Source: a virus
Lineage: Duplodnaviria > Heunggongvirae > Uroviricota > Caudoviricetes
DNA: 6,173 nt
Reading direction: 5' to 3' (one strand)
Virus record (IMG/VR): IMGVR_UViG_2609459804_000023
This document shows, in pieces, positions 1,415 through 5,968 of the stretch (position 1 is its first letter; every line of letters begins with the position of its first letter). The position numbers were made by a program, and so were the translations under genes. The notes under the pieces were generated by a model. The model made no database searches, had not been told where the DNA came from, and saw only the letters and a program-made list of their open reading frames with translations.

Positions 1415-1636
1415 TACCTCACAATTCCACAGCTTGATGATTGTCTGGCTGCCGGAGAATTTGTTAAAAATTACATCGCGTGGTGAATCCCCCTCAGCGG
1501 CGGGGCATCTGGCAAAGTGTATGATCCAGCGAACATGCAAATTCAGTAGCCAGGCTGAATTTACCGGGAGGCACCTGGCACCATGCGACAGACAGAAATT
1601 AGGCTATACTTCAGCCCCTCTCCGGAGGGGCTTTTC
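1415..1636 (+). repeat. Module A of a tandem triplicated element (candidate small-RNA or attenuator unit) ending in an intrinsic terminator
   Basis: Shares ordered conserved blocks with 1881-2120: tcacaattc, attgtctggc, tttgttaaaaa, ggtgaatccccct, a conserved-stem hairpin (1489-1506), accgggaggcacc.tgcaccatgc, and the terminator agcccctc-tccg-gaggggct-ttt. Indels shift the reading frame between copies. Confidence 0.6.
1613..1636 (+). terminator. Intrinsic terminator of module A (8-bp GC-rich stem, UCCG loop, T-run)
   Basis: agcccctc tccg gaggggct tttc. Confidence 0.8.
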
Positions 1637-1677
1637 TGTGCAGGATGTGTCACAGTTTCCTGAATTCTGAGTACTGT

Positions 1678-1849
1678 CCTGTTACTCAGGGTGCTATATT
1701 TTCTGACGTGATGAAAGTCTGCCGGAAGGCGGAACGTATCGGAAATGACCCAGTAGAGAAAACGTTGACTCAGATACCGATGCTGAGTTACCGGGAAACC
1801 GGCATCACATGACCGCTATCCTTCCAGGCTCGCTCCGGCGGGCCTTTTT
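1678..1849 (+). repeat. Module B, a shortened and more diverged copy of the same element
   Basis: Retains gttactca, gatga..gtctg..ccgga, gctgagttaccgggaaaccggcatcacatg and a terminator with the same UCCG loop. Confidence 0.5.
1827..1849 (+). terminator. Intrinsic terminator of module B
   Basis: ggctcgc tccg gcgggcc ttttt (7-bp stem with one G-U pair). Confidence 0.75.
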
Positions 1850-1880
1850 ACTGCAGAAAACAGTTTTCCCGTAAAATGCC

Positions 1881-2120
1881 ACGTTACTCACAATTCAGGC
1901 TGGCGATTATTGTCTGGCCAGCGGGAAGTTTGTTAAAAAAATATGGCATGGTGAATCCCCCTGTGCGGAGGGGCATATCAGCGACAGGTGTTTGGTCACA
2001 CCCCTTATCCTTTCTGGTGCGGGTTCAGGTGCTGATACTGAACTCACCGGGAGGCACCCTGCACCATGCATGAACGGTACATAGCGCTACTCTCCAGCCC
2101 CTCTCCGGAGGGGCTTTCTT
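1881..2120 (+). repeat. Module C of the tandem triplicated element, ending in an intrinsic terminator
   Basis: Same ordered conserved blocks as module A, a hairpin at 1957-1974 with conserved stem and different loop, and an identical terminator stem-loop at 2096-2115; preceded by a -10-like TAAAAT at 1872-1877. Confidence 0.6.
2096..2120 (+). terminator. Intrinsic terminator of module C
   Basis: agcccctc tccg gaggggct ttcttgtt. Confidence 0.7.
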
Positions 2121-2127
2121 GTTGGAT

Positions 2128-2157
2128 AAAAAAAAGCCCGCGCCGGGAAGCGCGGGT
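2128..2157 (-). terminator. Minus-strand intrinsic terminator (hairpin preceded on the plus strand by A8), convergent with the module C terminator
   Basis: aaaaaaaa gcccgcgc cgggaa gcgcgggt: read on the minus strand this is an 8-bp GC stem followed by U8. Confidence 0.5.
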
Positions 2158-2357: not shown

Positions 2358-4331
2358 ATGGCATTTAAACACTATGACGTGGTCAGGGCATCATCGCCGT
2401 CAGACCTCGCAGGAAAACTGACGCAAAAACTGAAGGAAGGCTGGCAACCCTATGGTAGTCCGATTATCTCAAACGCGGGTTATGGTGCTGAATTTATCCA
2501 GGCTATAGTCGCTGAAGGGGATATGACCTCTCCGGTAGTTTCACCGGGGGGAGATGGTACCCGGACTGTTGTTGTTGAACCAGAATATTACTTTGTCATT
2601 GCGCTGGCCGGACAGTCAAACGGCATGGCGTATGGTGAAGGTCTGCCGCTGCCGGAGACATATGACCGTCCGGACCCGCGTATTAAACAGCTGGCGCGTC
2701 GCAGTACGGTGACACCGGGTGGTGCGGCCTGTGCATATAACGACATCATTCCGGCGGACCACTGCCTGCATGATGTGCAGGATTTGAGCCGTTTTTCTCA
2801 TCCGAAAGCCAGCGCAGAGCAGTATGGGTGTGTCGGACAGGGATTGCATATTGCCAAAAAGCTGTTGCCCTTTATGCCGGAAAATGCGGGTATTTTGTTA
2901 GTGCCGTGCTGTCGTGGTGGCTCTGCGTTTACAGCCGGTGCTGACGGAACGTTCAGTGAAAGTTCAGGAGCGTCGGATAAATCTGAACGATGGGGCGTTG
3001 ATAAGCCGTTGTATAAAGACCTGCTGACACGCACTCAGGCCGCGCTGAAGGCAAACCCCAAAAACATACTGCTTTGTGTTGTCTGGATGCAGGGCGAGTT
3101 TGATTTAAAACAGGGAGCGTACGCCAGTCAGCCCGCCATGTTTGATGCCATGGTGGAAAAATACCGTTCTGACCTGGCGGGAGTATCCGGTCAGTGCGCT
3201 GGTGCTTCTCCTTCTCTGGTGCCCTGGATTTGTGGTGACACGACGTACTACTGGAAGGAGACGTATTCAGCGCAATACGATGCCGTCTATGGCGCATACA
3301 AAACCAAAGCCGGTAAAAATATCTTCTTTGTGCCGTTTATGATGGATGACAATGGTCAGAAAGTCGGGACCAATGAACCGTCAGAAGACCCGGATATTCC
3401 GGCTATCGGGTATTATGGTTCCGGTGGACGAACGGATGCGAAGAGCTGGACAACATCCGATCGTAAAACCCACTTTGGTTCATGGGCGCGTCGCGGAATT
3501 ATTTCCGACCGTCTGGCAACAGCCATTCTTCTGCATGTGGGCAGAGTGGCAGATTTTGTTTCCGGGAAAGTGACAAAAGCCGCGGTTTCTTCAGGCGGAG
3601 GCGTATCGCAACCAGCACAGGAGAGTGGCGATACTCAGCCTGAATCCGTTGTCCCGACAAAGATACAGTCAGTGCTGGCTTATGATGCGAATGCGGAAAA
3701 TGCCGATCTGGCTTCGCAGGGCTGGACGCTGACAGATGTCAAAAACACGCTGGTCAGTGACAGTGGTTCAGGTAAAAAAGCCCTTCGTCTTGAAAAACCA
3801 GAAAATGGTCTTGCACAGAAAAAGACCTGGAAAGTATCGCACGCAATTGATGCCGGTAAGGGGAAGGAGCTGTTCGATAACGGCGGTGAAATCACGCTGC
3901 GCTTTAAAATCCCCGATGATGTATCTCTCAATGCTTCTGCAAATCAATATTCTGCGGGTATTTACTGGCGCGGTAGTGGATGGCCGGGAGCGGAATCAGA
4001 GGAGGGTTATATTGCGGCCTTCTATCTGCAGACTGATAAAACAAACATCAATGTGATGTATCATGCAAACACCACATCACAGCGGCTTGGTAGTTATGGT
4101 CCGTTCGATCACGACTGGCACACGCTGACTTTCCGCTTCCCGGGTGGTGGCTCGCTGAACGTCACGCCGGTGCTTGATAATGCAGCAGGAAAACCGTTTA
4201 CGCTGACCAGATGGACGAATGCAGCCTTTGAGGCCAACGCGCTGGCAATTACGGATATTACCGGAAATGCGGCAACTTACCCTGTGCTGATTGAAAGTCT
4301 TACTGTTGGTGTGAATGCCGTAGCAGCATAA
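2358..4331 (+). CDS. nanS: Prophage-encoded sialate O-acetylesterase of the NanS-p type (N-terminal DUF1737-like region, SGNH/SASA esterase core with GQSN motif, about 250-aa C-terminal domain)
   Basis: 657-aa ORF; GGGAGG at 2348-2353 four nt before ATG 2358; N-terminus MAFKHYDVVRASSPSDLAGKLTQKLKEGWQPYGSPIIS and motif FVIALAGQSNGMAYGEG are characteristic of the family; location between the late regulatory region and the holin matches nanS-p in EHEC lambdoid prophages. The ORF-track start at 2328 is probably an upstream in-frame ATG without a ribosome-binding site. Confidence 0.88.
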   Translation: MAFKHYDVVRASSPSDLAGKLTQKLKEGWQPYGSPIISNAGYGAEFIQAIVAEGDMTSPVVSPGGDGTRTVVVEPEYYFVIALAGQSNGMAYGEGLPLPETYDRPDPRIKQLARRSTVTPGGAACAYNDIIPADHCLHDVQDLSRFSHPKASAEQYGCVGQGLHIAKKLLPFMPENAGILLVPCCRGGSAFTAGADGTFSESSGASDKSERWGVDKPLYKDLLTRTQAALKANPKNILLCVVWMQGEFDLKQGAYASQPAMFDAMVEKYRSDLAGVSGQCAGASPSLVPWICGDTTYYWKETYSAQYDAVYGAYKTKAGKNIFFVPFMMDDNGQKVGTNEPSEDPDIPAIGYYGSGGRTDAKSWTTSDRKTHFGSWARRGIISDRLATAILLHVGRVADFVSGKVTKAAVSSGGGVSQPAQESGDTQPESVVPTKIQSVLAYDANAENADLASQGWTLTDVKNTLVSDSGSGKKALRLEKPENGLAQKKTWKVSHAIDAGKGKELFDNGGEITLRFKIPDDVSLNASANQYSAGIYWRGSGWPGAESEEGYIAAFYLQTDKTNINVMYHANTTSQRLGSYGPFDHDWHTLTFRFPGGGSLNVTPVLDNAAGKPFTLTRWTNAAFEANALAITDITGNAATYPVLIESLTVGVNAVAA

Positions 4332-4337
4332 CAGACG

Positions 4338-4373
4338 AAAAAAACCGCCAGCAACAGGAATGGAGACTGGCGG
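4338..4373 (-). terminator. Hairpin with flanking A7 just after the nanS stop; possible weak or antisense-direction terminator
   Basis: aaaaaaa ccgccag (15-nt loop) ctggcgg; U-tract only on the minus strand; the loop is long, so weak. Confidence 0.25.
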
Positions 4374-4471
4374 AGGTAATCCCAATGGAGAATCTAACGA
4401 AAGGATGCTTTCGACATCAATCATTTCTAAATGAAAACAGTTCTCATTGTCAACAGTAACGGTAATAAACC

Positions 4472-4666
4472 ATGACATTCATCAACCAGTTAATGCTGTA
4501 CTTCTGTACGGTGGTCTGTGTGTTGTATCTGCTTTCGGGTGGATACAGGGCAGTACGCGACTTCTGGCGCAGACAGATTGACAAAAGGGCCGCTGAGAAA
4601 ATCAGCGCCACTCAGTCAGCCGGAGCAAAAACAGAAGCCCCACTCATTCCGGAACAACCTTCTTAA
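4472..4666 (+). CDS. Hypothetical small membrane protein (64 aa, N-terminal transmembrane segment, basic C-terminal tail)
   Basis: ORF MTFINQLMLYFCTVVCVLYLLSGGYRAVRDFWRRQIDKR...; hydrophobic N-terminus; weak Shine-Dalgarno; sits 25 bp upstream of the next ORF. Confidence 0.35.
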   Translation: MTFINQLMLYFCTVVCVLYLLSGGYRAVRDFWRRQIDKRAAEKISATQSAGAKTEAPLIPEQPS

Positions 4667-4691
4667 TAACCCCTTTCAACGAGAAAATCTC

Positions 4692-4982
4692 ATGACAGAT
4701 ATAAAACAACTGGTCACTGCTGAGGCAGTGAAGGAAGTCATTCGCTCTGAAGAAGTCAGAAGCGTCCTGAAACAAAAACTCCGCCAGAATCTGGAAGAGC
4801 GTCTTGATGCAGAAGTGGATTCAATTCTGGATGAATTGCTTGGTGCACAGCCGGAACCATCCCCGGAACTGCTTCCGGAACCACAGGCGGAAGATGTCAC
4901 CACGGAAAATGGTGATATTCAGCCGGAGTCACCGGTGACGGATATGACAGACACACAACCCGAACCGGGCACAATGCTGTAA
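4692..4982 (+). CDS. Hypothetical acidic protein (96 aa; N-terminal helical region, Pro/Glu-rich low-complexity C-terminus)
   Basis: In-frame ATG at 4692 (MTDIKQLVTAEAVKEVIRSEEVRSVLKQKLRQNLEERLDAEVDSILDELLGAQPEPSPELLPEPQAEDV...); the longer ORF-track version from 4518 overlaps the preceding ORF in another frame and is less likely. Confidence 0.45.
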   Translation: MTDIKQLVTAEAVKEVIRSEEVRSVLKQKLRQNLEERLDAEVDSILDELLGAQPEPSPELLPEPQAEDVTTENGDIQPESPVTDMTDTQPEPGTML

Positions 4983-4993
4983 CGGCGGGGCAG

Positions 4994-5024
4994 GGCCATC
5001 AGTAAAACACTGATGGCCTTTTTT
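4994..5024 (+). terminator. Strong intrinsic terminator immediately upstream of the holin gene
   Basis: ggccatcag-taaaaca-ctgatggcc (perfect 9-bp stem) followed by tttttt. Confidence 0.8.
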
Positions 5025-5058
5025 ATTTCCGGTAGCACAGGTCTGTCGGGGCGGGGAT

Positions 5059-5274
5059 ATGTATCAGATGGAAAAAATATCAACGGGCATAGCCTATGGT
5101 ACTTCTGCGGGCAGTGCGGGTTACTGGTTTCTACAGTGGTTGGATCAGGTTACTCCGTCACAGTGGGCTGCTATCGGGGTTTTGGGGAGCCTGTGTCTGG
5201 GGTTCCTGACATACCTGACGAATCTGTATTTCAAAATTAAAGAGGACCGTCGCAAGGCTGCCCGGGGAGAGTGA
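5059..5274 (+). CDS. S: Class II holin of the phage 21 S21 pinholin type with dual-start motif (71-aa antiholin from ATG 5059, 68-aa holin from ATG 5068)
   Basis: [71 protein letters not shown] is near-identical, from memory, to S21; two hydrophobic segments; GGGGA placed optimally for the second ATG. Confidence 0.88.
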
Positions 5275-5278
5275 TTAG

Positions 5279-5812
5279 GTGACTCAGAAACTCCACTATG
5301 GTTTATCGGTAGCCGTTCTGGCGCTGATTGCGGCAGGTGCTTCTGCGCCTGAAATCATCGACCAGTTTCTTGACGAAAAAGAAGGTAACCACACCACGGC
5401 ATACCGTGATGGTGCGGGGATCTGGACCATCTGCCGTGGTGCCATCATGGTGGATGGCAAACCTGTCGTCCCGGGCATGAAGTTGTCGAAGGAAAAATGC
5501 GACCAGGTTAACGCCATTGAGCGTGATAAGGCGCTGGCATGGGTGGAGAAAAACATCAGAGTGCCACTGACCGAACCCCAGAAAGCGGGGATCGCGTCAT
5601 TCTGTCCGTACAACATCGGGCCTTCGAAATGCTTCACCTCAACGTTTTACCGGAAACTGAACGCCGGAGACCGGAAAGGTGCATGTGCTGAAATCCGCCG
5701 ATGGATATATGACGGCGGCAGGGACTGTCGGAATCGCTCAAATAACTGTTACGGGCAGGTATCGCGGCGTGACCAGGAGAGCGCGCTGGCGTGCTGGGGA
5801 ATTGACAGATAA
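5279..5812 (+). CDS. R: SAR (signal-arrest-release) endolysin, T4-lysozyme-like glycoside hydrolase family 24; GTG start
   Basis: N-terminal SAR-like segment GLSVAVLALIAAGASAP; catalytic E-x8-D-x5-T triad in EGNHTTAYRDGAGIWT; positioned 4 nt after the pinholin stop, the usual pinholin plus SAR-endolysin pairing. Confidence 0.92.
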   Translation: MTQKLHYGLSVAVLALIAAGASAPEIIDQFLDEKEGNHTTAYRDGAGIWTICRGAIMVDGKPVVPGMKLSKEKCDQVNAIERDKALAWVEKNIRVPLTEPQKAGIASFCPYNIGPSKCFTSTFYRKLNAGDRKGACAEIRRWIYDGGRDCRNRSNNCYGQVSRRDQESALACWGIDR

Positions 5813-5902
5813 GCAGAATATTTTGCTGAAAAATGCGGTTTGCTCACACGGACGGATAACACGAAATCCTGCGAACTGACAAAAACTAAGTGAATAAAAG
5901 TA

Positions 5903-5937
5903 AAAACCCCGTTTGTTGGCTGCAAGCGGGGTTTTGT
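5903..5937. terminator. Bidirectional intrinsic terminator downstream of the endolysin gene
   Basis: aaaaccccg...cggggtttt hairpin with inner ttg/caa extension, A-rich upstream and T-rich downstream, so U-tracts exist in both orientations. Confidence 0.7.
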
Positions 5938-5968
5938 GTTTCTGACCTTGGATAAGGCAAGGGAGAAC

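Follow-up and report, generated by a model that had tools for sequence, protein, structure and literature searches.

The viral record IMGVR_UViG_2609459804_000023 (Caudoviricetes) raises the question of what is encoded by a tandem array of three diverged modules, A, B and C, that precedes the lysis genes of a lambdoid prophage. An earlier note on this DNA, made from the letters alone, had offered two answers, a family of prophage small RNAs (sRNAs) or a stack of terminators, and had treated the array as an undescribed element. Our results make it very likely that positions 1415-2123 of the window (the whole stretch analysed here, 6,173 nt; all coordinates are in its numbering unless a locus is given by an L number) contain three autonomous STnc100-family sRNA genes, arranged head to tail between an IS1-disrupted gene at the Q position and the nanS-p/lysis cassette.

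Three modules, two of them clear members of a catalogued sRNA family

By repeat search, modules A and C have ordered blocks in common (1418/1887 to 1639/2122, 77-100% identity), and the spacing between the starts of these blocks drifts from 469 to 468 and then to 483. The indels behind this drift leave the two modules without a common reading frame, as the earlier note had said. The copies have diverged too far for Tandem Repeats Finder, which missed the array. The repeat search, a terminator scan and folding together confirmed three modules on the same strand, each with a UCCG-loop terminator: between 700 and 2500 the scan gave 11 terminator-like sites where 1.4 were expected, and the fold z-scores of the three terminators lie between -3.6 and -3.9. 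The terminator of module B differs from that of A and C by two compensatory double changes and one wobble, and its loop is unchanged. The predicted genes and their terminators are the following.

1478-1640, + strand: sRNA A, STnc100 family, with core 1478-1587, variable linker 1588-1612, and terminator 1613-1632 plus U-tail
1613-1632, + strand: terminator of module A, 8 pairs, UCCG loop, -17.3 kcal/mol
1706-1852, + strand: sRNA B, diverged paralogue, with core 1706-1811, linker 1812-1825, and terminator 1826-1845 plus U-tail
1826-1845, + strand: terminator of module B, 8 pairs, UCCG loop, -15.6 kcal/mol
1946-2123, + strand: sRNA C, STnc100 family, with core 1946-2070, linker 2071-2095, and terminator 2096-2115 plus U-tail
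2096-2115, + strand: terminator of module C, 8 pairs, UCCG loop, -17.3 kcal/mol

The fold of the whole RNA A has an energy of -64.2 kcal/mol (z -3.1). Module A matches the Rfam family RF02076 (STnc100) at 1448-1641 with 139.9 bits (E 8e-32) and module C matches it at 1917-2126 with 129.9 bits; both clear the gathering score of 47 bits by a wide margin, so that A and C are ordinary members of a curated sRNA family. Module B reaches 30 bits (1677-1852, E 0.001), below the gathering score. Judged by these matches, the modules appear to be tandem copies of an already catalogued prophage sRNA, and the finding is to that extent mostly ordinary. The idea of a family of prophage small RNAs is thus upheld by the matches of A and C, and that of an undescribed element falls with the same matches and with relatives that have been documented experimentally (PMC5331693, PMC12711010, PMC8550237). 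The genome of strain EDL933 carries 11 copies of STnc100, all of them transcribed and one positive in Northern blots (PMC5331693). One copy follows the stx2 operon at a distance of 75 nt (PMC12370729) and overlaps the Hfq-bound sRNA EcOnc27, which is the same as sRNA103 (PMC12711010, PMC7873438) and is supported by Hfq crosslinking and analysis of cDNA (CRAC) and by Northern blots (PMC7873438, PMC12711010). Sequence variants at the stx2-flanking copies have been linked to clinical outcome (PMC12711010), and effects of STnc100 overexpression on fimZ and espA have been reported (PMC7873438).

The comparison with Shiga toxin 2a (Stx2a) phages also places the array more precisely. In one Stx2a phage the order is Q, three tRNA genes, stx2A, stx2B, STnc100 (159 bits), a convergent sRNA gene and nanS-p, and module C is 83.5% identical to the STnc100 copy downstream of stx2B in Stx2a phages. 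The earlier note had put the whole array in the slot where Stx phages carry stx. This holds for A and B, which sit where stx2AB would be, but module C is the counterpart of the copy that follows stx2B.

A conserved core with a pseudoknot, and its B variant

The family was collected with an exact-motif scan, which gave 91 stretches in species-representative genomes and at least 120 in viral contigs; the genera with matches include Kosakonia, Enterobacter, Klebsiella, Raoultella, Citrobacter, Leclercia, Superficieibacter and Escherichia. We aligned 68 diverse cores with MAFFT, without fitting them to a structure (alignment A2), and built from A2 a covariance model, R1, whose search of the 91 genome loci returned 125 matches (alignment A4, 119 distinct rows). 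In A2, a helix P1 (GYRUGGUG/CACCAYRC) closes a domain of ~105-140 nt. Within it, hairpin P2 has a CCCC/GGGG stem and a conserved ..GCGG. loop. Immediately after it comes one strand of P3, a helix of 5-7 bp; this strand pairs with the P4 hairpin loop, so that an H-type pseudoknot is formed. A last hairpin, P5 (CCGGG-AGGCA-CCCGG), abuts the 3' strand of P1. P2 and P5 are near-invariant across the family, their loops included, in part because a motif located in P2 was used to collect the loci. The internal hairpin reported in the earlier note at 1489-1506 (A) and 1957-1974 (C) is real and is the family helix P2. R1 gives module A 84.1 bits and module C 88.4 bits. A relative in K-12 (IpeX in DLP12, or one in Qin) was considered and rejected, there being no convincing match with R1.

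The helices are supported by covariation. In A2, 89.1% of the cells are paired against 38-45% when the partners are slid, with changes on both sides at 6 of the 6 P3 pairs and at 3 of the 3 pairs of lower P4; in A4, 94.1% of the cells are paired against 39-50% when slid. Lower P4, which lies outside the R1 model, is 96.8% paired in A4 and all three of its pairs covary. Taken column by column on the MAFFT alignment, upper P4 is paired in only 60% of cells because a bulge of 0-4 nt shifts its register, and we therefore relied on lower P4 and on a duplex test made sequence by sequence, in which the complementarity between P3 and the P4 loop is greater within than between sequences (p = 1e-12). 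The conservation of the modules is at the RNA level, as the earlier note had held, with strong covariation and no coding signal. We did not find this H-type pseudoknot of the STnc100 core described in the literature that we searched, and it is a modest addition to a known kind of element.

These data also bear on whether the modules are protein-coding or are fragments of known genes, which we regard as barely credible. ORFs of 97, 55 and 65 aa in our open reading frame (ORF) listing do overlap the modules, and GenBank phage records annotate hypothetical proteins across the array interval. Against this, the homologous blocks of A and C lie in different frames, the substitutions in the helices are compensatory, none of the six module-overlapping ORFs, both strands included, has a Pfam match at E <= 1, and the RefSeq annotation has no coding sequence across the interval. 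Coding potential or known-gene fragments, which the earlier note had named as contrary evidence, were thus not found. The lambda Q-S region (43800-46500) gave no Rfam STnc100, R1 or blastn match (word size 7, E 0.01); this leaves the modules without similarity to that region and removes the resemblance to the leader and hairpin of lambda S that the earlier note had suggested. We propose that the annotation of the interval be corrected from hypothetical proteins, or an element of no known kind, to STnc100-family sRNA genes and a convergent sRNA gene.

Module B requires separate treatment. The earlier note had seen it as a copy with the same sequence blocks as A and C; its terminator and structure are indeed alike, but it is much more diverged (30 bits against Rfam; 21.1 bits, E 8e-4, against R1, a weak match), and what it has in common with A and C is structure rather than sequence blocks. 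Read against the family architecture, its helices are as follows.

Module B P1, 5' strand at 1708-1713: GUGAUG/CAUCAC, with an A-U pair replacing G-C
Module B P2: UCUGCC-GGAA-GGCGGA
Module B P3: GUAUCGG/CCGAUGC
Module B P4: ACUCAG/CUGAGU, with the 3' strand of P3 within its loop
Module B P5: CCGG-GAAA-CCGG

In this reading, module B would keep every helix of the family through compensatory changes, at weak model scores (30 and 21.1 bits). Its single-sequence fold recovers P1, P2, either P3 or P4, P5 and the terminator; P3 appears in the minimum-energy fold and P4 in the centroid fold, an alternation that is expected for a pseudoknot. Both loops that are conserved in the family, those of P2 and P5, are replaced in B by GNRA tetraloops (GGAA and GAAA). 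Of 5426 complete E. coli genomes, 673 (~12%) carry the variant, in two sequence classes that differ by compensatory changes in P2, and in our locus sample it occurs only beside canonical copies (S), in 12 S-B-S arrays and one S-B array. From this distribution, module B does not appear to be a one-off decay product. We found no description of this B-type variant, which escapes the Rfam threshold, in the searched literature.

Transcription, termination and the function of the array

In 162 distinct upstream sequences of the family, the UGGUG motif at the start of P1 is preceded by an A/T-rich box, located 8-13 nt upstream of its U, and T is enriched 36 nt upstream. The earlier note had pointed to -10-like elements near the 5' ends of the modules. 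The sequences TAAATA (1411-1416) and TAAAAT (1872-1877) do exist, but they lie ~50-60 nt upstream of the family-wide box and are probably not promoters. Better candidates are found at the box itself.

1441-1470, + strand: putative promoter of module A, TTGTCT at 1441-1446, 18-nt spacer, extended -10 TGtTAAAAA at 1462-1470
1692-1700, + strand: putative extended -10 of module B, TGcTATATT, which precedes the P1 5' strand by 6-8 nt
1910-1939, + strand: putative promoter of module C, TTGTCT at 1910-1915, 18-nt spacer, extended -10 TGtTAAAAA at 1931-1939

A consensus promoter scan called none of the three, and for this reason they are given here as candidates. Transcription is predicted to start near G1478 (A), 1706 (B) and G1946 (C), at the 5' end of P1, and these positions coincide with the mapped 5' end of PasD2, an enteropathogenic E. 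coli (EPEC) sRNA (PMC8550237, table S6). At the other end, the linker that joins P1 to the terminator is hypervariable in the family, even among copies with the same terminator. The linkers of A, B and C differ from one another, and all three contain a pyrimidine-rich motif, GCUAYNCUYC, which would fit seed pairing with purine-rich ribosome-binding sites.

Based on these features, we propose that each gene has its own sigma-70 promoter with an extended -10, a structured core of ~105-125 nt, with observed helices and covariation, that would begin at the 5' end of the transcript, a copy-specific, pyrimidine-rich linker of 14-26 nt that is the likely target-pairing seed, and a strong intrinsic terminator with its U-tail. 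Such a terminator and U-tail are the usual Hfq-binding module, and binding of Hfq would be expected by comparison with the relatives. In the lysogen, three RNAs of ~147-178 nt would be produced constitutively and act in trans, with Hfq, on mRNAs of the host or the prophage. The terminators would at the same time block read-through, from the module promoters and from the upstream late promoter, into nanS-p and the lysis genes; strong terminators would be needed because read-through from constitutive promoters would otherwise enter nanS-p and the holin and lysozyme genes. During lytic growth, antiterminated RNA polymerase would pass all three terminators, as in lambdoid late-gene biology.

With three strong + strand terminators within 500 nt, and with the Q-position gene on one side and the lysis genes on the other, the array could also be mainly a stack of terminators that insulates nanS-p and the lysis genes unless the polymerase is Q-modified, the sequences upstream of each terminator having no function of their own. 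The deposited genome of phage PhiR5_2 (host K-12 MG1655) carries the same A-B-C array, so that late transcription must pass these terminators, in agreement with such a role. We nevertheless find this explanation improbable. An intrinsic terminator follows P1 by 20-90 nt in 60% of 186 unique family copies (median RNA length 167 nt), whereas 40% of the copies have no recognisable one; the terminator sequence changes freely between members and is not conserved with the core, and the conserved, covarying part is the core of ~110 nt. In addition, a single terminator would suffice for insulation, and the relatives are abundant, discrete, Hfq-bound RNAs (PMC8550237, PMC5331693). It is plausible that the insulating effect is a consequence of the gene layout, and not the reason why the ~110-nt core is conserved.

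The distribution of the family and its neighbours introduces another possibility. A census of arrays with nhmmer covered 219 sequences (218 fetched loci and the window) and 254 occurrences, which divide as follows.

Single copy: 221 of 254
Two canonical copies: 14
Three canonical copies: 6
S-B-S: 12
S-B: 1

Arrays of two or three copies recur across the Enterobacteriaceae, for example in Superficieibacter, Leclercia and Enterobacter, and the phage vB_EcoS-640R1 has the same A-B-C array followed by different genes. We found no description of tandem STnc100 arrays in the searched literature. The first ORF downstream of family copies encodes a nanS-p esterase 30 times and a holin from any of several families ~46 times; it is a 62-aa phage ORF 16 times, and in 18 species-level genomes it encodes a KdgM-family porin. 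These recurrent neighbours, the near-invariant loops and junctions and covarying helices across genera, and the existence of some cores that have no recognisable terminator and stand 30-45 nt upstream of a Shine-Dalgarno sequence and ATG are what would be expected if the core were a cis-acting sensor or leader, riboswitch-like or protein-binding, that controls the following terminator and downstream gene, with the copies arranged as in tandem riboswitches. Pairing could even occur between the 3' strand of P2 (GGAGGGGC) and the A/C terminator's 5' strand (inverted repeats I2 and I5). As an account of this array, a cis-acting leader is nonetheless decidedly improbable, since the downstream genes are heterogeneous and have no single metabolic theme, every module comes with a putative promoter and terminator of its own and is followed in the array by another sRNA gene rather than an ORF, the terminator is not conserved with the core, and relatives that have been mapped, PasD among them, are discrete RNAs that bind Hfq and have many targets in trans.

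Two groups of relatives deserve mention here. In Kosakonia, Klebsiella, Enterobacter, Raoultella and Citrobacter, a chromosomal sub-family of the core, with its own conserved variable region, precedes a KdgM-family porin gene (PF06178) by 80-250 nt (loci L011, L019-L022, L027, L029, L035, L045, L049, L053, L061 and others). Cores without a recognisable terminator are found at L009:2948-3232(-), L012:4645-4929(-) and L013:670-954(+), with an ORF following within 30-200 nt; the products of such ORFs include a lipoprotein-like protein of 69 aa, a MarR-like protein of 143 aa and a phrog_21993 protein. The family core may also serve as a 5' leader.

Several points weigh against three autonomous sRNA genes. 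The putative module promoters are weak matches to the consensus. For about 40% of the family cores no terminator could be recognised within ~100 nt, and some cores stand directly 5' of ORFs, so that the family does not consist uniformly of terminated sRNAs. Module B is below the Rfam threshold and could be non-functional, and the support for transcripts, 5' ends and Hfq binding would carry over to the array by analogy, as it comes from relatives. Finally, base pairing with targets does not by itself need a strongly conserved, pseudoknotted core, which suggests an additional function for this core. One proposal, which we consider unlikely but worth stating, is that the STnc100 core is a conserved pseudoknotted domain that binds a protein or a small molecule, or forms a tertiary module, and has been reused in front of variable 3' tails in prophage late regions and also as a leader or neighbour of KdgM-porin genes; the loop swap in the B lineage would then have changed or lost this interaction. 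If so, tandem arrays would contain functionally distinct RNAs and not redundant duplicates. The three sRNA genes, with their scaffold kept and their linkers different, would represent a way to diversify the sRNA repertoire of prophages. As STnc100 copies flank stx2 and their variants are linked to clinical outcome, a defined structure and seed should make functional tests easier to design.

Prophage context and comparison with known systems

From the ORF listing and family scans, the window is the late region of a lambdoid prophage, in the order IS1-split Q-position gene, three modules, nanS-p, holin and lysozyme. The features outside the array are the following.

~1-760: IS1 (insA/insB ORFs)
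770-907: 3' remnant of the Q-position gene, its last 45 codons, interrupted by IS1
2129-~2316, - strand: convergent sRNA gene, terminator 2137-2156 (-), -15.9 kcal/mol, 5' end placed by alignment
2358-4331: nanS-p-type SASA esterase
4472-4666: DUF1378 ORF
4692-4982: DUF826 ORF
5059-5274: class II holin
5279-5812: lysozyme

An E. coli chromosome that is otherwise 99.8% identical has the Q-position gene intact, as an ORF of 204 aa (L002:4994-5608) directly after ninH, where Q sits; its product has no Pfam match. As IS1 splits this gene in the window, late transcription of this prophage is probably defective. The same chromosome carries, outside the window, isrK, a C4 antisense RNA and a c4-a1b1 target motif together at L002:2292-2490, upstream of an ORF6N antirepressor-like gene. 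At 1100-1340 we observed tRNA-like debris, for example the T-arm-like GGTTCGATTCCGG, and a weak match to a tmRNA fragment (13.5 bits); neither ARAGORN nor the Rfam scan found a tRNA gene in the window, and Stx2 phages have three tRNA genes in the equivalent interval. On the minus strand 3' of the lysozyme gene (5879-5967), a hairpin with U/A runs gives a sub-threshold Rfam rimP-leader match (27.5 bits against a gathering score of 47) and is probably just a terminator.

The convergent gene at 2129-~2316 is 88% identical over 142 nt to E2348C_1409.E2348C_1408.IGR, an sRNA detected in EPEC with Hfq by the ligation and sequencing of interacting RNAs (RIL-seq), whose homologues in enterohaemorrhagic E. 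coli (EHEC) are EcOnc08/21/42. Its terminator abuts that of module C, and the same gene is conserved between STnc100 and nanS-p in the Stx2a phage. In at least eight Sakai prophages, the interval from late promoter to lysis genes has been described as holding dyads of Hfq-binding sRNAs (PMC7873438); EcOnc27+AsxR and EcOnc06+AgvB are such dyads of EHEC lambdoid prophages (Tree et al. 2014, reviewed in PMC7873438). Like these EHEC dyads, the window pairs sRNA genes with an oppositely oriented sRNA gene in the interval between late promoter and lysis genes; unlike them, it has three + strand genes facing one minus-strand gene, of the EcOnc08/21/42 type. The comparison with AgvB and AsxR made in the earlier note was therefore apt for the neighbourhood, but not for the sequences, as AsxR (RF02703), AgvB (RF02702) and Esr41 have no Rfam match at E <= 1 on either strand of the window.

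PasD is a second system to be compared. PasD1 and PasD2 of EPEC are supported by RIL-seq and Northern blots (~172 nt; PMC8550237), and a 2026 preprint describes them as structural relatives of STnc100 and states that the Pas copies are not tandem duplicates (10.64898/2026.05.13.724894). PasD (EPEC E2348/69; EcOnc13 in EHEC) resembles the modules in the 5' half of the core (GCAUGGUGAAUCC..., ...GCGGGAGGCGCC), in its position upstream of a sialate esterase gene, in a mapped 5' end at P1 and in its dependence on Hfq, and differs at the 3' end, where it has a seed (UGUGAG) and a terminator (GGCUGCGCAUUGCGCAGCC) of its own. PasD2 (NC_011601 741157-741328, table S6 of PMC8550237) scores 41 bits against RF02076 and 35 bits against R1. 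The PasD 3' end (UGUGAG seed and terminator) is in none of the three modules, blastn and alignment matching only 29 nt, at the 5' end, to module C. The identification of module B as PasD was rejected, since B retains the UCCG terminator and has neither the PasD seed nor its terminator. PasA, which in EPEC lies on the minus strand between esterase and holin, is absent at 4340-5058, where the DUF1378 and DUF826 ORFs fill the interval.

Phage morons are autonomous units of promoter, gene and terminator inserted in late operons. The modules recall them, each with its own putative promoter and its terminator inside a late operon and probably expressed from the prophage, but their cargo is a structured RNA and not a protein, and their promoters are predicted ones. 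The closest system is that of STnc100/EcOnc27 itself. It occupies the same slot, downstream of the late promoter and, where present, of stx, and 5' of nanS-p and the lysis genes, and has the core and the CUCUCCGGAG-type terminator in common with A and C. The window differs from it by three tandem copies, where a single copy is commonest elsewhere, by linkers that are unlike that of the stx2-linked copy, and by having no stx.

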